A DNA stretch of 64,000 nucleotides from an uncultured Acidobacteriota bacterium (GCA_963770895.1 CAVYRF010000002.1:3744001-3808000); one strand, 5' to 3'. Counted from the first letter of the stretch, positions 8,330 through 49,091 are shown. Notes: generated by a model not told the origin, from the letters alone. A program made the numbers and translations.

Positions 8330-9454
8330 ATGAAACGGCGCCTGCTGCCCCCGCTGCTGATCCTGGCGATCACCTTGGGACTGCTCGCCCTGGCCGAGGG
8401 CGGCACGCGGCTGGTGCTGCGTCTGCGCGATGGGGTCTGGCCCGAAACCTCGGTCAGCGCGGTGCGGCGCCAGCAGAACGAGGTGCTGCGCCTCTACCGG
8501 CGGCACCCCTTCCTGAACACCGCGCCGCACGCCGCCACGCGGGTGCATGCCTTTGGCAAGGAAGCGTCCTTCAACTCCCTGGGCTACCGCTCGCCCGAGC
8601 GCCCCCTGGCGCGGCCGCCCGGCACGCTGCGCATCCTGTGCGAGGGGGGCTCGACCACCTTCGACCTGCTGGCGGCGCGCGACGAGCAGACCTGGCCCTG
8701 GCGGCTCGAGCAGAAGCTGCGGGCGGGCCGGCCGCAGCTGGAGGTCTGGAATGCCGGTTTTCCCGGCTGGACGTCGCTCGAAAACGTCATCTCCCTGGCT
8801 GAGCGTGACGCCGACCTGGATGCGCGGCTGGTGGTTCTCTTTCAGGGCGACAACGACCTGCAACCGGGAGGCTGTCAACCCTTCGACCGCCAATACGAGC
8901 ACTGCCACGCCGGCCTGGTCGTGCGCGCGCTGGGTTTCGATCCGCCGCCGCTGCCGTGGCGCTCGCGCAGCGTCCTGCTGGAGCGGCTGCGCACCGCTCT
9001 AGGGCGCCCGGTGGATCCCTGGGCGACGCTCGAACCGAACGAGGCCCGGCACCCCGGCCTGGAGCCCGCGGCAGTCGCCACCTTTGCCCGCAACGTCCGC
9101 TCCCTGATCGGCATCGCCCGCGCCCACGGCGCCCGCGTCGCGCTGGTCACCCAGACCGTGCGCATCCGCCAGGCCCACCGCGCCGAAGACCTGAAGTACC
9201 TTGCGCAATGGCTGCCCGGCCTGCAGCCCGAAGCCGCGCCCGCCCAGCTGGAACGCCTGAACGCCGTCCTGCGCTCCCTGCCCGCCACCGCCGCCGCCGC
9301 ATCCGGCGACGTCTACCTGCTCGACGCCGCCGTAAGCGTCCCCTGGCAGGACGAAGACTTCGCCGACCCCCTGCACTTCTCCGACCAGGGCAGCGAGAGG
9401 CTTGCCGCCTACCTGGCCGGCGCCCTGCCGCTACCCGCGCCGCAAGCGCCCTGA
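8330..9454 (+). CDS. SGNH/GDSL hydrolase family protein, N-terminally membrane-anchored
   Basis: N-terminal TM; NSLGYRS, ILCEGGSTT (block I), NAGFPG, QGDND, DPLH (block V). Confidence 0.85.
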   Translation: MKRRLLPPLLILAITLGLLALAEGGTRLVLRLRDGVWPETSVSAVRRQQNEVLRLYRRHPFLNTAPHAATRVHAFGKEASFNSLGYRSPERPLARPPGTLRILCEGGSTTFDLLAARDEQTWPWRLEQKLRAGRPQLEVWNAGFPGWTSLENVISLAERDADLDARLVVLFQGDNDLQPGGCQPFDRQYEHCHAGLVVRALGFDPPPLPWRSRSVLLERLRTALGRPVDPWATLEPNEARHPGLEPAAVATFARNVRSLIGIARAHGARVALVTQTVRIRQAHRAEDLKYLAQWLPGLQPEAAPAQLERLNAVLRSLPATAAAASGDVYLLDAAVSVPWQDEDFADPLHFSDQGSERLAAYLAGALPLPAPQAP

Positions 9455-9560: not shown

Positions 9561-9743
9561 TCAGCCCGGAGGCGAGCACTGCACGCACGCGCTGAGCGCG
9601 CACAGCGACACCGTGGGCGCGCACGTGTACGTGTACTCATGGCCGCCAGCCGCCGCGGCAAGCTCGTCGGGGTTCATCTGCAACAACGTTTCGCGACTGA
9701 GGATCATCTTGCGAGTGCTACGGGTCGTCCCGTTCCGCTTCAT
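9561..9743 (-). CDS. RiPP (lanthipeptide-like) precursor peptide, 60 aa
   Basis: AAAGGGAG RBS; leader MKRNGTTRSTRKMILSRETLLQMNPDELAAAAGG (LxRETL, double-Gly); core HEYTYTCAPTVSLCALSACVQCSPPG (4 Cys, 3 Thr, 3 Ser). Confidence 0.8.
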   Translation of the reverse strand: MKRNGTTRSTRKMILSRETLLQMNPDELAAAAGGHEYTYTCAPTVSLCALSACVQCSPPG

Positions 9744-42164: not shown

Positions 42165-42926
42165 ATGTCTGCCGCGATGGAGCCTGCTCCGACGCCGTCG
42201 TTGCTTGCCGACGGCCCCCAGGATGGTCCGGCGCTGGTGCTGGCGCACGGCGCCGGCGCGCCGATGGATTCGCCGTTCATGGCCGAGGTCGCGGCGGGGA
42301 TCGCGGCGTGCGGGGTGCGCGTCGTGCGCTTCGAGTTTCCCTACATGGCGGCGCGCCGCGATGGCGTGCGCCGCCCGCCGGATCGCGAAGCGACGCTGCT
42401 GCGCACCTGGGGCGCGGTGATCGCCGCCTTGGGCGGCGGGCCGCGTCTGTGCATCGGCGGCAAGTCGCTCGGCGGCCGCATCGCCAGCATGGTTGCCGAC
42501 CAGGCCCAGGTGCGCGGCCTGGTCTGTCTTGGCTATCCTTTTCGCCCGCCCGGCGCCGATCCGGTGGCGGGCGCGCCGCAGCTGGCGCACCGCATCGCCC
42601 ACCTGCGCGAGCTGCGCACGCCGGCGCTCTTCGTCCAGGGCACCCGCGATCCGTTCGGCGGCCGCGCCGAGGTAGCGGGCTACCCCTTGTCGAGCGCCAT
42701 CCGCATCCATTGGATGGAAGACGGCGATCACTCCTGGAAGCCGCGCCGCGCTTCGGGGCGCAGCGAAGCGGACAACCTGCAGGAAGGAATCGCCGTGGTG
42801 GCGGCGTTCGTGCTGGGCGGCGACGGTCAGGACGCGGCGCCGCGGGGAGTCGGCGGGGATGGCAGGGGTGGCGAGGACGGCAGCGGCGGCGGGAACGGCA
42901 GGGGTGGCAGCGCCGCGCGGCGGTAG
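42165..42926 (+). CDS. Alpha/beta hydrolase (Tex30/KANL3-like)
   Basis: LAHGAGAPMDS, RFEFPYM, GGKSLGGR, LGYPF, QGTRDPFG, GDHS. Confidence 0.9.
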   Translation: MSAAMEPAPTPSLLADGPQDGPALVLAHGAGAPMDSPFMAEVAAGIAACGVRVVRFEFPYMAARRDGVRRPPDREATLLRTWGAVIAALGGGPRLCIGGKSLGGRIASMVADQAQVRGLVCLGYPFRPPGADPVAGAPQLAHRIAHLRELRTPALFVQGTRDPFGGRAEVAGYPLSSAIRIHWMEDGDHSWKPRRASGRSEADNLQEGIAVVAAFVLGGDGQDAAPRGVGGDGRGGEDGSGGGNGRGGSAARR

Positions 42927-43873
42927 TCGTGCAGCCGGCCCACGTCGATGCGGACCATGCCGGCAGGGGTGGCCGGTTTGAACATGGTCGCGAAGGAGGC
43001 GCCCCAAACGACTTCGAACGCCTTGTAGGACGAGCGGGTATGGACGGTCTGCGAGAAGGTCTCGTCGAAGCCGGTGAGGATGATGAGGAACTCGGCCTCA
43101 CTTGCCGTCAGCTCTTCTTCCGAAAGCCCGTACAGAGGGCTTTCGGCGTCGATCGGGTGGACGATCGTCCACGACAGGGGAAAGAAGGTGACGCGCGGCC
43201 GTTCGAGCGCCAGCGGCAGGAACGGGCGCACGCCGCGGCCGGGCGGCGAATAGGTGAACAGCACCCGGCACTCGACGTCGATCAGCTGATTGCTGCGCGA
43301 GTTGACGATGCGGAACTCGAAGGCGGCGCCGCCTTGATAGGGTGCGATCAGCGCCTGGCGGCTGAACACGATCTTTGCCGTCGGGCGGGAGAACCGCGCG
43401 AACAGCAGGCCGGTCGCCAAGGCGAAGCCCAGCAATCCGACCAACGATTCCACCGTCACCACCACGTTGGCGGCCAGGCCGTTGGGGCTGATCTGGCCGT
43501 AGCCGATGGTGGCAAAGGTCTGGACGCTGAAGAAGAACGCGCGCAGAAATTCGGTGCCGCCCGCCTCCGCCGGCGAAGCGCCGGCCAGCGCGCCGGGGCC
43601 GCAGGCCAGGTAGGCCCCCGCGAAGCTGGCGTTGAGCACCAGGTAGGCGGTGATCACCAGCCCCAGGAATCGCGGCCACGAGGTGGTCAGCAGGTAGTGG
43701 TACAGGCTGAGCGAGCCGAGCGGCCCCAGCCCCTCGCGGCGCACGTTGAAAGTGCCGTCGCGATTGAGGAACCGCTGGCGGCTTTCGCGCGCCACGACCG
43801 ACCCGAAGCCCAGATCGCGGTCGCGATCGACCTCCCCTCCGGCGGGTTCCACCCGCGTCTCAAGGGTCGCCAT
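42827..43873 (-). CDS. Inward-rectifier potassium channel (KirBac-like)
   Basis: FFFSVQTFATIGYG filter, GLLFARFSRP, FRIVNSR, LSWTIVHPID..SPLY, HTRSSY. Confidence 0.93.
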   Translation of the reverse strand: MATLETRVEPAGGEVDRDRDLGFGSVVARESRQRFLNRDGTFNVRREGLGPLGSLSLYHYLLTTSWPRFLGLVITAYLVLNASFAGAYLACGPGALAGASPAEAGGTEFLRAFFFSVQTFATIGYGQISPNGLAANVVVTVESLVGLLGFALATGLLFARFSRPTAKIVFSRQALIAPYQGGAAFEFRIVNSRSNQLIDVECRVLFTYSPPGRGVRPFLPLALERPRVTFFPLSWTIVHPIDAESPLYGLSEEELTASEAEFLIILTGFDETFSQTVHTRSSYKAFEVVWGASFATMFKPATPAGMVRIDVGRLHDYRRAALPPLPFPPPLPSSPPLPSPPTPRGAAS

Positions 43874-43937
43874 GGCCGGCGAGTCTAACGCGTTTCGCGC
43901 CGGTGCTCCGCAGGCTCCCGGCGGCGCCGGCGCCGGC

Positions 43938-45410
43938 GTGCCCGAGGTGCTGGCGCGGCCGTTGCGCGCCAGTCCCCTGTACCAGCTGGTGCTGCACGAT
44001 CGCCTGCCGGCCGCCGCGCGCGCATGGCTGGCCGGGGCGGCGCGCGATCCCGATCACTACGGCGTGCTGCGGCCGCGCGGCGTGGCGGCGAGCGGCGCCG
44101 GTGGCGGCGGCGGCGCCGATGCCGATGCCGATGCCGGGGCTGGCAGTGGCATGAAGCTGGTGGATCGCGACACCGCCCTGCTCTTTCTCACGCTGGAGAG
44201 GCCGGGGCCGCTGCCTGGCTATGTCCGGTCGCGCCTGGGTGACGGCGGCGCCGCGGCGGTGGCGGCGCGGCTGGTGGCGGATGGCGTGATCGAGATCGAG
44301 CGCGAGGCCGGGGTTTTTGTGTCAGGCGCCGCGGCGATGGCGCTGCTGCGCACGGCGGGCGGCGCCGGTGGCGCCGGGCCGGTAGAGGAGGGGCGCATCG
44401 CCGCCGCTGCTGGCATGGCCGCCATCGCCGAGCTGTCGCGCACCGCGCTGCGCCGCGGCCAGCAGCTGGTGAGCGCCGACGGCGCCGTGGGCGCGGGGCG
44501 GCTGGCGCATTTCCTGTACACCTATCATCGCCTGCCGCTCACGCCGGGATGGCAGCGCCGGCTCGCGACCGCCGATGCGGTGCGGCAGTTCCTGGGGATC
44601 GGTCCTGGGGGAGTGCGGCGCGGCCTGCTCGACCGGCACTGGCAGGAGGTGCCGGCCAGCCCGGCCGGAGCGGCGGATGCGGCCGCGGCTCCGGGATCGC
44701 CAGGACCGCCATGGCTGCGATGGTACCCGCGCCGGGCGGCGGCGGCGGCGGCCGTCGACGCGACGCCGCATGCGTACAAGCTCTATGTCAGCGTTGCGCC
44801 CGACGCCATGCCCGATGTGTTCGGCGCGATCCTGGCCGGCCTGGCGGCGGCGGGTGCGCCCGGTTTCAAGGTGGGCGCCAGCGCCTCCGGGCTATTGCGG
44901 CCGGACAAGGCCGTCGCCTATTTCCCGCGTTTCGACGACCTGGCCGCGGCGGCGCACATCCTGGCCGGGCACCTGGACGGCGCCGCCGTGCACGGGGTCC
45001 CCTTCACCGCCGAGATCGCCGGCGGCGGCGTGCTGTCGTGGGGCGTCGATCCGCCCCCATGGGCCGGCGGCACGGCGCAGTGGGCGGGCCGCGGCAGCTG
45101 GCGTCAGTGGCTCACCCAGCGGCTGGCCGAAGCCATGCTCGCCGCGCTGGGTTGTAACGCCGGCGTCGTTGCCGAGCCGCCTCCGCCGCCGGCGCGGCCG
45201 GACTCGGTGCTCGCGCGGACACCGGTTGTCGAGGTGGCCGCGACGTCGCAGGCCGCGCAGCTGTCGCAGCTGTCGGAGCCGTCGCGGCCGGTTGCGATGG
45301 AAGGCTGGGAATTTGCGGTCGAGCGGCTGCGGCTGGAGGGCATCGACCCCGCCACGTGGGCGCCGGGAGCGCTGCTGTGGCGCCGGCCGGAGGAGGCGCG
45401 GGGCCGGTGA
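43938..45410 (+). CDS. Putative stand-alone phosphoSer/Thr lyase (HopA1-like) of a lanthipeptide pathway; start uncertain (43872 ATG or 43938 GTG)
   Basis: YKLYVSV...GFKVG...LLRPDKAVAYF...GVPFTA...LSWGVDP...SWRQWL; stop overlaps start of kinase-LanC gene. Confidence 0.65.
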   Translation: MPEVLARPLRASPLYQLVLHDRLPAAARAWLAGAARDPDHYGVLRPRGVAASGAGGGGGADADADAGAGSGMKLVDRDTALLFLTLERPGPLPGYVRSRLGDGGAAAVAARLVADGVIEIEREAGVFVSGAAAMALLRTAGGAGGAGPVEEGRIAAAAGMAAIAELSRTALRRGQQLVSADGAVGAGRLAHFLYTYHRLPLTPGWQRRLATADAVRQFLGIGPGGVRRGLLDRHWQEVPASPAGAADAAAAPGSPGPPWLRWYPRRAAAAAAVDATPHAYKLYVSVAPDAMPDVFGAILAGLAAAGAPGFKVGASASGLLRPDKAVAYFPRFDDLAAAAHILAGHLDGAAVHGVPFTAEIAGGGVLSWGVDPPPWAGGTAQWAGRGSWRQWLTQRLAEAMLAALGCNAGVVAEPPPPPARPDSVLARTPVVEVAATSQAAQLSQLSEPSRPVAMEGWEFAVERLRLEGIDPATWAPGALLWRRPEEARGR

Positions 45411-48247
45411 GCGGGATGACGGAGCCGTTGGTGCTGGGCGCCGGCGTCACTCTGGAACCGGTGGCAGAGCTGCCGGAGGCGGTGCGGCGGCAGCTGGACT
45501 GGACGCCGGGCGACCATGCCCTGTCGCGGCCGGGCCTGCGCACCGGCTCGCGGGTCGTGGACGCCGCCGCCGCCGATCTGCTGCGCCAGTTCGCCACTCC
45601 TTCCACCCTTGTCGAAGCCGTGATGCGCCACAGCCAGGCGTGCGGCGGCGACGCCGAGGCCCTGCTGGACGCCGCCTACCCGTTGCTCGCCAGGCTTCTG
45701 CGCGAAGGCTTTCTGGTGCCGGCGGCGGACGGCGGCAGGGGACGCATCGACGCCTCGTGGGCGGCGGCGGAGCGCATCGCCGGATGCACCGTCCAGCGTT
45801 GCGTGCAGGTGCTGGTGGATACCGAGGTCTATCAGGTCCGCACCGACGCCGCGCACGCTTCCGCGTCCGACCCTTGGCAGATCGCGCGGCGCGAGGCGGC
45901 GCTCAAGATCGTGCGCGCGCCAGCCGTGGGCGGCGCCGGCGCCAGCGATGGCTCGTCGCCGCGGGGCTCCGCGGCCAGGTTGCTGCGCGAGGCGATCATC
46001 CTCGATCACCTGGGGCGCGGCGGCGCCGGCGCACCGGTGGCGCCGCTGCTGCTTGCCACCGGTGTCTGGCAGGGCAGGCGGTTTTTGGCGCTGGAGTGGT
46101 GCATGGGGCTGGACGCGCACCTGGTCGCCGCCGAGCTGCGCGAGCGCGGCGCCGGCGGCTTGGCGGAGCTGCTGGCGCTCTGCCGCCGGGTCGCGGCTGC
46201 CTACGCCGCGCTGCACCGGCGGGGGGTGCTGCACGGCGACGTGCACGCGCGCAACGTCCTGGTGGATGCCGGCGGCGAGGTGCGGATCATCGACTTCGGA
46301 TTTTCGACCTGGCAGGGCGTGCCGGCGAGCCTGGCGCAGGCTGGCCGTGGCGGGGTCGCGTTCTATTTCGAGCCCGAGTACGCCGCGGCGACGCTTGCCG
46401 GCCGCGCCGCGCCGCCGGTCACCGCGGCCGGCGAGCAGTACGCGGTTGCAGTGCTGCTGTATTACCTTGCCTCCGGCGCCTTTCCGCAGGATTTCTCGCT
46501 GGAACGCCAGACGCTGCTGCGCCAGATCGCGGGCGATCCACCCCTGCCTTTCACCCTGCGCGGCGCCGCCGCCTGGCCGGCGCTGGAAGCCGTCCTGGGG
46601 CGGGCGCTCGCCCAATCGCCGGCGGATCGCTACCCGTCTCTAGACGCCCTGACCGCTGCGCTGCACGACATCGAATCCGGCGTGGTCGTAAGCGACGAGG
46701 CCGGGCGTGGCGACGGGAGTGGACGTGGCGAGGCTGCCGGTCCCGCGCCGCTGCTCGCGTTGAGCAGCGCCTTGCGTCGCGATCCGGCGGCCGCCCTGCT
46801 GGAGCAGATGGTCGCGGCGACGCAAACCGGCGGCGAGCTGTGGCAGATGGGCAGTGGTGGCAGTGGTGAGGGTGGTGGCAGCGGTGCGGGGGCGCTCGCC
46901 GGGGTGCAGGACGGTGCCGCGGGGATCGCGTACGCGCTCTACCGCATCGCGACGGTGCGTGCCGACCCGGACCTTTTGGCGCAGGCGCATCTTTGGAGCG
47001 TGCGGGCGGCTGGCGCGGCGCGGTCCGGTGCGGCGACGTTTTACGATGCCGACCGCAACCTGACACCGCGCACGATCGGCAGCGCCTCGCTGCTGCACGG
47101 ACCGCCCGGCGTGCACTGCACCGCCGCCCTGATCGCCAACGCGCGCGGCGACCGTGCCGCGGCAAGCCAGGCGCTGGCCGCCTTTGCTGCCGCCGCAAGC
47201 GTTCCCTGCCCCTTTGTCGATCTCGCGCTGGGGCGTGCCGGTCTGTTGTCGGCCTTTGCCCTGCTGCTGGATGCGCTGGAAGCTGGCGGCACGGTGCCCC
47301 AGGACGATGTGGGCGGGCTGGCGGGAGAGGCGGCGGCGGGCGCCAGCTTCCAGCAGCTGCGGGCGATGGGAGACGGCCTGCTGGCCGGGATCTGGCGGGA
47401 CATCGTGCCGCTGCGGCCGATTGAGCAGTGCCGGGAGTGGTCCAACCTCGGCATCGCCCACGGCTGGGCGGGTGCGCTGTACGCGATGCTGCGCTGGTGC
47501 CGCTCGGCCGGCCGCCCCCTTCCCGCCGGGTTGCCCGGCCGCCTTGACCAGCTGGCCGGCTGCGCCGAAAGCTGCGGCAGGGGTATCCGCTGGCGCTGGT
47601 ACAACCTGCCGGCCGGGGAGCCGTGGGCGCCGGGCGCTGCCGCGGCGCTACGCCTGACGCCATCGGTCGATGCCGCCGCACCGGTTTCCGGTCACACGGC
47701 GCCGCCGCTGGCAGTGCCGCACGATGGCGGTGCGGCAGCGGTGGCGCCGGTCACGCCGATGGCGCCGATTGGAGCCATGGCACCCATGACGCACGGCGCT
47801 CAGGCCGCACCGGAGCCTGTCTGGATGGCGGGGTGGTGCAACGGCAGCGCCGGCATGGTGCACCTGTGGACGGCGGCGGCGCGGATGCTGCCCGGAGGCG
47901 GCTACGAACGGCTTGCCGTCGACGCCGCCTGGCATGTCTGGGAAGCTCCCGAACGCTCGTTCAGCCTGTGTTGCGGCCTGGCGGGGCGGGCCTATGCGCT
48001 GCTCGACTTGTACCAGCACGGCTGCGGGGCGGAATGGCTGGAGCGGGCACGCACGCTTGCCGGGCGGGCGGCGGCGGCGGTGGCGGAGGAAGAGGTGGCC
48101 GGGGCCGATTCGTCGTTCGCCTCCAGCGCCGCCAGCCTGTATCGCGGGCCGCTGGGGGTGGCGGTGCTGGCGGCGGACTTGGCGCGGCCGCGGGACGCTG
48201 CGATGCCGCTCTTCGGCGACGAGGGTTGGGCGCAGGCGCTGTGTTAG
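45407..48247 (+). CDS. Ser/Thr kinase-LanC cyclase fusion (lanthipeptide synthetase lacking lyase domain), N-terminal RRE-like domain
   Basis: GGAGGAGG RBS and GTGA overlap; AALKIV, LHGDVHARNVLV, IIDFG, PEY; LanC motifs LLHGPPG, GIAHGWAG, GWCNGSAG, LCCGLAG, SLYRG. Confidence 0.85.
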   Translation: MSGMTEPLVLGAGVTLEPVAELPEAVRRQLDWTPGDHALSRPGLRTGSRVVDAAAADLLRQFATPSTLVEAVMRHSQACGGDAEALLDAAYPLLARLLREGFLVPAADGGRGRIDASWAAAERIAGCTVQRCVQVLVDTEVYQVRTDAAHASASDPWQIARREAALKIVRAPAVGGAGASDGSSPRGSAARLLREAIILDHLGRGGAGAPVAPLLLATGVWQGRRFLALEWCMGLDAHLVAAELRERGAGGLAELLALCRRVAAAYAALHRRGVLHGDVHARNVLVDAGGEVRIIDFGFSTWQGVPASLAQAGRGGVAFYFEPEYAAATLAGRAAPPVTAAGEQYAVAVLLYYLASGAFPQDFSLERQTLLRQIAGDPPLPFTLRGAAAWPALEAVLGRALAQSPADRYPSLDALTAALHDIESGVVVSDEAGRGDGSGRGEAAGPAPLLALSSALRRDPAAALLEQMVAATQTGGELWQMGSGGSGEGGGSGAGALAGVQDGAAGIAYALYRIATVRADPDLLAQAHLWSVRAAGAARSGAATFYDADRNLTPRTIGSASLLHGPPGVHCTAALIANARGDRAAASQALAAFAAAASVPCPFVDLALGRAGLLSAFALLLDALEAGGTVPQDDVGGLAGEAAAGASFQQLRAMGDGLLAGIWRDIVPLRPIEQCREWSNLGIAHGWAGALYAMLRWCRSAGRPLPAGLPGRLDQLAGCAESCGRGIRWRWYNLPAGEPWAPGAAAALRLTPSVDAAAPVSGHTAPPLAVPHDGGAAAVAPVTPMAPIGAMAPMTHGAQAAPEPVWMAGWCNGSAGMVHLWTAAARMLPGGGYERLAVDAAWHVWEAPERSFSLCCGLAGRAYALLDLYQHGCGAEWLERARTLAGRAAAAVAEEEVAGADSSFASSAASLYRGPLGVAVLAADLARPRDAAMPLFGDEGWAQALC

Positions 48248-48335
48248 CATCGCAGCGTGGTCGAGGGGACGTCCGGGGCTCGCACTCAGCCCGCTGAACC
48301 CTGCCCGCGTTGAATTCTCGTCGAGCTCGTTGACC

Positions 48336-49091
48336 GTGCACCTGCACACCGCGGAAGCCCTGTTGCTGGACGTGCGCGACCTGCACGACCGCGATCGAAT
48401 CGTCACCTTCCTGACCCGCGAGCGGGGCAAGAAAAGCGGCGTGGCCCGCGGCGCCAGGGCGCCGCACAGCCGCTTTGCCGGCCAGCTGCAGCAGCTGGCC
48501 AAGGTGCGCATCACCTGGTTCGAAAAGGACGGGCGCGACCTGGTGCGGATCTCGGCCGTGGAAATGGTGCGGCCGGCGCACCGCCTGCAGGCCGACCTCG
48601 AAGGCATCCTGCTCGGCAGCTACCTCGCCGACCACATGCTGGAGTTCGCACAGGAAGACGAAGGCTCCGATCTGCTGTTCCGGCTGCTCGATGCGACGCT
48701 GGAAGCGCTGATCGCCGGAGCGGACCGCGACGTGGCGGCCCGCTACTTTGAATCGTGGGTGCTGCGCCTGAGCGGGATCTTCCCTCCGCCTGACGCCTGT
48801 CCGCAGTGCGGCAGGAGCTTTGCCGGGTGGGCCGTGCTGCCGCCGCAGGCCGATGCGCTGGTGTGCCGCGACTGCGTGGACCAGGCCCAAACCGGCATGG
48901 TGGTTGGCGCCGCGACGCTCGACTTCCTGTGCCGGATCGAGCGCTCGACGCCGGCCAACGCCGGCAGGCTGGCGCCGGCGGCGGCGACGCTGCGGCAGGT
49001 TGAGGAGCTCTGCGCCCGCGTGCGCCGCGGTTTCCTGCGGCGCGAGCTGCGCAGCTACGAAGTCATCCAGCGCACCCGCGCGGCGCTCTAG
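48336..49091 (+). CDS. recO: DNA repair protein RecO
   Basis: EALLL...[25 protein letters not shown]; CPQC..CRDC zinc motif; upstream of glyQS. Confidence 0.9.

Follow-up and report, generated by a model that had tools for sequence, protein, structure and literature searches.

The window considered here is a stretch of 64,000 nucleotides (G000:C2:3744001-3808000) from an uncultured bacterium whose genome, G000, comprises 8.16 Mb in three contigs with a G+C content of ~72%; homologues of its genes carry names from Thermoanaerobaculia, in the Acidobacteriota. Within it lie two adjacent genes, designated A and B, whose products resemble the lyase and the kinase-cyclase parts of lanthionine synthetases, respectively. 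B opens with a domain that resembles the recognition element (RRE) of enzymes that make RiPPs, peptides that are synthesized by ribosomes and then modified post-translationally. The two genes and their predicted parts are as follows.

43872..45410, + strand: gene A, a stand-alone phospho-Ser/Thr lyase-like protein of 512 aa, with ATG 43872 placed by alignment of homologues
43935..44750, + strand: N-terminal region of A (~residues 22-293), conserved helix/strand domain(s) without an assigned role
44754..45161, + strand: predicted lyase core of A (~residues 295-430), with K303-L-Y305, K333, R343-P-D-K346 and Y350
45407..48247, + strand: gene B, RRE-like domain, Ser/Thr kinase and LanC cyclase in one protein of 946 aa, starting at GTG 45407
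45407..45721, + strand: predicted RRE-like (PqqD-like) domain of B (residues 1 to ~105), from an AlphaFold (AF2) model and Foldseek
45884..46696, + strand: protein kinase domain of B (~residues 160-430), Pfam Pkinase
46889..48244, + strand: LanC-like cyclase domain of B (~residues 495-946), Pfam LANC_like

The A-B gene pair

The open reading frames (ORFs) extend over 43746/43872-45410 (+) and 45356/45407-48247 (+). They overlap in the sequence GTGA, with the GTG of B (45407-45409) lying over the TGA of A (45408-45410) in GGTGAGC (45406-45412), and a Shine-Dalgarno sequence, GGAGGAGG, stands ~10 nt 5' of the GTG. Gene B is translationally coupled to gene A. An earlier note, made from the sequence alone, had described coupled genes with a GTGA overlap at 45407-45410, and the ORF coordinates and sequence agree with it.

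Residues 295-390 of A match the Pfam family HopA1 below threshold (E 0.013; 15.8 bits, cut-off 22.7), and NCBIfam gave zero matches to A. The motifs KLYVS, FKVG and LLRPDK.VAYF are present, and K303, L304, Y305, S307, K333, R343, P344, D345, K346 and Y350 are unchanged in 25 of 25 homologues. The AF2 model of A, based on a 25-sequence alignment (predicted local distance difference test, pLDDT, 77.1; predicted template modelling score, pTM, 0.77), has HopA1 (4rsx, E 1.5e-5) as its best Foldseek match and chain B of the LxmKY lexapeptide dehydratase complex (9dk3_B, E 3.5e-5) as its second. Further matches are the class III/IV synthetases CuvL, SalKC, ThurKC and PneKC, as well as OspF and SpvC, and unrelated folds begin only at E ~0.5. 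A phospho-Ser/Thr lyase fold for A is supported by this model. The matches from E 1.5e-5 onwards support the HopA1-like lyase fold proposed in the earlier note, and the motif string it had singled out, KLYVS..FK..RPDK.VAYF, contains the constant residues. The N-terminal region of A has conserved blocks in the alignment and confident secondary structure in the model; no Pfam family was found there at E <= 0.01.

In CaoY, activity requires R187, K219 and R229, and Y236 is retained; the four correspond to K104, K136, R148 and Y158 of SpvC (PMC9486802). The K333-R343-Y350 spacing of A (10, 7) equals that of K219-R229-Y236 in CaoY (PMC9486802), a match made by spacing and not by superposition. K303 of A is a Lys where CaoY has Arg187, as in OspF, LanKC and LanL, and A has Tyr at the position of SpvC His106, as mapped by spacing only.

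Pfam recognized Pkinase (43.4 bits, cut-off 31.7; residues 224-362), APH (30 bits) and LANC_like (59.1 bits) in B. The best NCBIfam model is LanL (NF038150), with 114.6 bits against a cut-off of 650; the match spans profile positions 236-687 of 851, i.e., what follows the lyase part. LanKC (NF038151) scored 80.1 bits against a cut-off of 575. In an alignment of the window copy with 24 homologues from several phyla, the kinase residues K167, H276-x-D278-x-H280-x-x-N283 and D296-x-G298 and the LanC motifs H685-G-W, W810-C811-x-G813 and C855-C856-G857 are constant in 25 of 25, and the cyclase motifs read WCNG and LCCG. From the LanC motif, we take C811, C855 and C856 to be metal ligands and H685 to be the active-site His. 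An Ala/Pro-rich insertion of ~65 residues in the LanC domain (residues ~738-802; window 47618-47812; alignment columns 817-880) occurs in the window copy only and is absent from the 24 other aligned homologues.

An AF2 model of residues 1-147 of B (pLDDT 90.0) was compared by Foldseek. The best match of residues 1 to ~105 is PqqD (5sxy, E 3e-3, target-normalised template modelling score 0.70), followed by TigE, MibB, MccB, TbiB1 with leader, ThcOx, TglHI, TruD and the PbtF RRE. The identity of the N-terminus as an RRE is moderately supported by the predicted fold. Because the RRE-like domain takes up residues 1-105, the kinase Lys is at 167 and the LanL match runs from profile position 236, B consists of an RRE-like domain, a kinase and a zinc-type LanC with no room for a lyase. 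The earlier note had read B as a kinase and a zinc-ligand LanC lacking a lyase, and the Pfam, NCBIfam and motif results confirm this. Its assignment of an N-terminal RRE stands in part: PqqD and RRE folds top the Foldseek results, but none reaches E <= 0.001 and Pfam PqqD found no match in B.

Of 201 genomes sampled from the class, 22 contain A, G000 included. B was found in 20 of the other 21, and in 19 it lies directly 3' of A on the same strand; the exceptions are G119, where A and B are on different short contigs, and G097 (700 contigs), where no match to B was found. With one genome scanned per species, 139 A loci were obtained, and the 80-locus counts given here refer to the best 80 of the 139, all from metagenome-assembled genomes. 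They come from Thermoanaerobaculia, Holophagales, Terriglobales, Bryobacterales, Pyrinomonadaceae, Chloroflexota, Eremiobacterota, Gemmatimonadaceae, Planctomycetota, Nitrospiraceae and Armatimonadota. B lies directly 3' of A in 79 of the 80, and the remaining contig stops 55 bp past A. With such recurrence, at 79 of the 80 related loci, the pairing is real and not due to chance. The earlier note had made its reading depend on co-occurrence of the two genes in other genomes, which these loci and the 19 of 21 class genomes provide.

A search of 1.84 billion representatives (50% identity clusters) with the A profile gave 1,554 matches with E <= 0.001, of which 1,042 have E <= 1e-30. The best 150 are all 349-474 aa, i.e., stand-alone, and no longer, fused relatives of the lyase part of A were found among 8,000 candidates in a word-based search, which is weak evidence. 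The A family is large, unstudied and widespread in uncultured soil and sediment phyla, with members in Acidobacteriota, Chloroflexota, Eremiobacterota, Gemmatimonadota, Planctomycetota, Nitrospirota and Armatimonadota.

A precursor-like family and the divided cassette

A small protein rich in Cys, Ser and Thr is encoded directly 5' of A in 61 of the 80 loci, as judged by a two-motif test in which the scores of hidden Markov models (HMMs) for an N-terminal and a C-terminal motif sum to at least 10 bits; the maximum in the background of the window's own genome is 5.4. These proteins match no Pfam family. Their conserved N-terminus reads, for example, MPKIKDLGI.VIPE or M[AS]F...[DE]L (M-[AS]-F-x-x-x-[DE]-L), and their C-terminal helix carries a conserved motif such as L.LL[RQ].QL[RQ] (L-x-L-L-[RQ]-x-Q-L-[RQ]). 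The core is hypervariable, with a high content of Cys, Ser, Thr and Pro. Cores span from two Cys up to tandem arrays, with a recurrent Cys-x3-Ser/Thr spacing, and some contain CTPSPP or CP.PS repeats. In long forms the C-terminal helix is extended into a coiled-coil-like tail of ~60 residues; between the conserved N-terminus and this tail sit 5 to ~9 tandem 17-residue units such as CTDCTTQAFSICGTTPG (L049, L043, L047, L052, L044 and others). The L049 gene (10385-11245, - strand) encodes ~nine copies of CTDCTTQAFSICGTTPG. Two precursor-like genes occur in tandem at L044, L102, L112 and L115.

The small proteins are read as precursors because of their hypervariable Cys/Ser/Thr cores, the Cys-x3-Ser/Thr spacing and the tandem cores between conserved ends. 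The features by which a RiPP precursor is recognized, namely an adjacent small gene, conserved ends and a hypervariable core, were found in 61 of 80 relatives and not in the window. Judged by their sequences, the small upstream-encoded proteins are likely the substrate of A-B. They would be an unusual type of substrate, with two conserved ends and in some cases ~nine tandem cores, of interest for multi-core processing and engineering.

The window contains no gene of this family, and a K+ channel gene abuts A. When all six-frame ORFs of the genome were scored, a single one stood out in the two-motif test (19.7, versus 5.4 for the runner-up), on a different contig from A-B:

G000:C1:1678457-1678693, - strand: precursor-family peptide of 79 aa, found by the two-motif search

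The peptide has the sequence MAFAARDLVLDLSSPKVPPQPNPKPECELTTGVTGGPVAEDWSPAPHCALDSSMATAGDDELAELRRQLRAALEAKAAA. It retains M1, F3, L8 and L62, which are constant in the short-form alignment, and both of its Cys have a Ser/Thr three to five residues C-terminal. GAGGAGG stands 7 nt 5' of the ATG, and the stop codon is followed by an inverted repeat rich in G+C. The gene is just 3' of one encoding a protein of 1,313 aa that combines two Pkinase domains with PD40 propeller repeats (kinase-PD40), a homologue of which lies on the same strand just 5' of the precursor-A-B cassette in 36 of the 80 loci. At some loci, extra short-form ORFs occur 4-5 kb 5' of A, past kinase-PD40 (L075, 1206-1826; L078, 1789-2097; L086, 289-519; L088, 1727-1966).

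The loci L055-L059 contain the closest relatives of the window's A and constitute a split sub-clade. In the genomes of L055, L056, L057 and L059 (4 of 4 searched), a precursor adjoining A is absent, and each has one strong short-form profile match elsewhere (E 5e-13 to 3e-7), ~200 bp past the kinase-PD40 gene, as in G000. Because the four closest relatives share this layout, the window belongs to a sub-clade in which the cassette is split into kinase-PD40 plus peptide and A plus B. With the cassette divided in its own genome, the substrate would therefore be supplied in trans. The absence of an adjacent precursor reported in the earlier note is thus true of the window but atypical, since 61 of 80 relatives have one directly 5' of A. 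Its suggestion of a substrate supplied in trans gains a family member on another contig, although most relatives encode theirs upstream of A. What goes beyond that note is the precursor family with its conserved ends, a substrate that is likely encoded in trans, and the linkage to a kinase-PD40 gene.

The two-motif search alone succeeded in the window's own genome, where long-form precursor HMMs (best E 0.64 and 3) and a strict regular expression for the precursor found nothing. A tblastn search with long-form precursors gave composition-driven matches only, one of which led to an unrelated azole-type cluster. A Cys/Thr-rich peptide with CTPC and CTQC repeats is encoded at G000:C1:416686-417369 (-), and also at 8684-9253 of locus L054; its neighbours are a ThiF-YcaO fusion, an S41 peptidase, a methyltransferase and a GFO/Irp3-like oxidoreductase. 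This locus is an azole-type RiPP cluster unrelated to A-B.

A 60-aa ORF in the window, 9561-9743 (-), ends in LLQMNPDELAAAAGG and then HEYTYTCAPTVSLCALSACVQCSPPG and resembles a precursor of another system, with a double-glycine leader and a Cys/Ser/Thr core. The earlier note had named this peptide as a test substrate, a choice no longer favoured, as the peptide looks to be of the double-glycine-leader type and both family motifs are missing. Besides gene B, the genome has 12 places with LANC_like above the cut-off, three of them in open frames that at 1035-1129 aa have the typical LanM size; one LANC_like locus (C2:3862037-3863011) lies ~54 kb past the end of the window.

The genes that flank the pair in the window are the following.

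42827-43873, - strand: IRK-type (inward-rectifier-type) K+ channel, adjoining gene A and divergent from it
48300-49088, + strand: recO (RecO), 3' of gene B

Beyond recO are glyQ-like and then glyS-like ORFs. The pair was correctly placed between a K+ channel and recO by the earlier note, and a divergent K+ channel neighbour is also found at L059. A palindromic CCATGG (43870-43875) holds the start codons of both gene A (+) and the K+ channel gene (-). With both ATGs in one CCATGG, there is zero intergenic promoter space between the divergent genes; one of the assumed starts, or the promoter positions, may differ from what is assumed.

Proposed function and alternatives

It is probable that A and B together constitute a split lanthionine synthetase with three activities, the substrates of which belong to the upstream family and are encoded in trans in this genome. 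If the pair works as classes III, IV and V do, the RRE-like N-terminus of B would dock the small precursor protein, and the kinase of B would phosphorylate Ser/Thr of its Cys/Ser/Thr-rich core. The free lyase A would then eliminate phosphate to give dehydroalanine or dehydrobutyrine, to which the zinc-type LanC of B would add neighbouring Cys thiols, closing small thioether rings. The reactions and their order, the ring pattern and the pairing of domains with motifs are all modelled on those classes.

Several observations weigh against this proposal. A falls below every curated family threshold, and the sub-threshold matches among 25 A-family members (E <= 0.1) amount to HopA1 in 1 of 25 and RamC_N, the lyase end of the class III enzyme, in 2 of 25. 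Searches of PDB sequences with the A profile and the A core gave nothing or chance matches only. The RRE fold matches of B are weak, with the E-values noted above. Part of the same 80 loci supplied the ORFs used to train the motif HMMs, and by the two-motif test 19 of the 80 have no precursor (2 with <30 bp upstream, 4 with the C-terminal motif alone, the 5 loci L055-L059 and 8 others). The peptide found in the window's own genome has two Cys only, and in the split layout it stays with kinase-PD40 and not with A-B, so that its primary partner could be that kinase. Finally, no conserved protease or transporter was found near the cassette with crude gene calls at 17 loci and the window, which leaves export or leader removal without explanation.

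The lack of a protease or transporter, together with the kinase linkage, would also suit an enzyme pair that works on folded proteins, in which phosphate is eliminated from phosphorylated kinases or other phosphoproteins and LanC caps the dehydroamino acid with a thiol, as a signalling or repair module; the small neighbour protein would then regulate the kinase-PD40 sensor or serve as its scaffold. OspF/SpvC-type lyases do target protein kinases (PMC9486802), and at 36 of the 80 loci kinase-PD40 is linked with the small protein, staying with it after the cassette has split. However, an RRE-like domain is typical of peptide-modifying RiPP enzymes, and the adjacent small proteins, being hypervariable, rich in Cys/Ser/Thr and built with Cys-x3-Ser/Thr spacing and tandem cores, bear the signature of precursors. 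Action on folded proteins is thus considered unlikely. The low scores of A would likewise fit a HopA1-fold adaptor that delivers substrate and is not a lyase, leaving B to other chemistry such as phosphorylation alone; to our knowledge, lyase function has not been established for HopA1 itself. Yet the residues essential in CaoY (Lys base, Arg 10 residues on, Tyr a further 7 on; PMC9486802) have constant counterparts in A by spacing, and the model of A matches true lyases (LxmKY chain B, CuvL, SalKC, ThurKC, OspF and SpvC), which makes an adaptor role very unlikely.

The window itself could suggest an orphan remnant, either substrate-less or moonlighting on other lanthipeptide-type precursors such as the 9561-9743 peptide. 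There is no precursor, protease or transporter next to A-B in the window, and at least 12 more LanC-like loci are present in the genome, along with that double-glycine-type Cys/Ser/Thr peptide. Against this, A and B are both intact and retain all constant residues, the four closest relatives examined share the split layout and have intact genes too, and a family-type peptide is present in the genome, whereas the 9561-9743 peptide lacks both family motifs. An orphan pair therefore appears improbable. A defence-system reading was set aside, since PADLOC gave only generic kinase matches for B and none for A.

For the split synthetase, the link to a kinase-PD40 protein of membrane type hints that its role is cellular and not antibiotic. 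A broader proposal, which we regard as doubtful, is that A-B, a free LanY-like lyase with an RRE-kinase-zinc-LanC protein, represents a new class of lanthionine synthetase that cross-links whole two-ended small proteins, with the N-terminal strand motif and the C-terminal helix serving as recognition elements around single or tandem Cys-x3-Ser/Thr cores, and that it is functionally tied to a membrane Ser/Thr-kinase/PD40 sensor, with thioether rings formed as part of signalling or of an envelope process, not for making antibiotics.

Relation to known lanthionine synthetases

Lanthipeptide classes are defined by the arrangement of dehydration and cyclisation activities. Class IV LanL enzymes (NF038150; e.g., CuvL, PDB 8cav) resemble B in having a Ser/Thr kinase followed by a LanC with zinc-ligand Cys, and the lyase domain of CuvL is a fold match of A. 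However, the lyase of LanL is the N-terminal domain of the same chain, whereas the lyase of this pair stands alone as a 512-aa protein of HopA1/LanY type, and B opens with an RRE-like domain instead. B therefore shows the kinase and, by motif, the zinc-ligand LanC of class IV, but neither the N-terminal lyase nor a score of 650 bits.

The class V systems LanK/LanY/LanX (lexapeptide LxmKY, PDB 9dk3; cacaoidin CaoK/CaoY) are similar to A-B in pairing a free HopA1-like lyase, as A is by predicted fold, with a separate kinase-bearing protein. The class V kinase is a stand-alone APH-type protein and a LanC-type cyclase is absent (PMC9486802, PMC11186320). In contrast, the kinase of B is fused to a canonical zinc LanC and an RRE-like domain, which sets it outside class V. 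The predicted fold of A resembles that of LanY, but its Pfam HopA1 score is 15.8 versus 22.7 bits, with a match at E <= 0.1 in 1 of 25 members. Class III LanKC enzymes (ThurKC, 8sap; SalKC, 9ugq; PneKC, 8w7j) have the same lyase/kinase/cyclase logic, and their lyase domains match the fold of A. Unlike A-B, LanKC is one chain with a cyclase that has no zinc ligands (PMC12328550), whereas B retains the zinc-ligand motifs.

The class VI synthetases of streptococci (He et al. 2023), as described in two reviews (PMC10676316, PMC12328550), are single proteins with a kinase and truncated lyase and cyclase domains, and make four-residue rings from short substrates (PMC10676316). They are comparable to A-B in their non-canonical lyase/kinase/cyclase arrangement, but A-B consists of two proteins, and both its LanC and its lyase are of full size. 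The phosphothreonine lyases OspF and SpvC and the HopA1 effectors share the predicted core fold of A. They are injected effectors that act on host kinases, whereas A is encoded in an operon with a kinase-LanC gene, near precursor-like genes, in free-living soil and sediment bacteria.

LanKCt of thioamitide producers was considered as a lyase-less form and rejected; the part of the source consulted describes LanKC homologues outside the cluster and does not mention truncation (10.1101/2020.08.21.260323). A 2026 paper on RiPPs of Acidobacteriota deals with two clusters, one of ordinary class III type and one of class II (PMC13083261). No published account of a free lyase with an RRE-kinase-LanC protein, or of these precursors, was found in literature of incomplete coverage, and an earlier description is possible. 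Genome mining that sorts by LanC plus Pkinase, as in 10.1101/2020.03.13.990614, would label B as class III/IV and overlook the separate lyase and the unusual precursors.

A-B lacks the fused lyase of class IV, the metal-free cyclase of class III and the stand-alone APH kinase without LanC of class V; hence it lies outside all three and is read as a new architectural variant of lanthionine synthetase. The earlier note had described a hybrid of a class V-like free lyase and a class IV-like kinase-cyclase, and the fold of A, the Pfam results and the features that separate the classes support that description. The pair thereby links two phosphorylation-elimination routes, the class V-type lyase and the class IV-type kinase-zinc-cyclase, and bears on their evolution.

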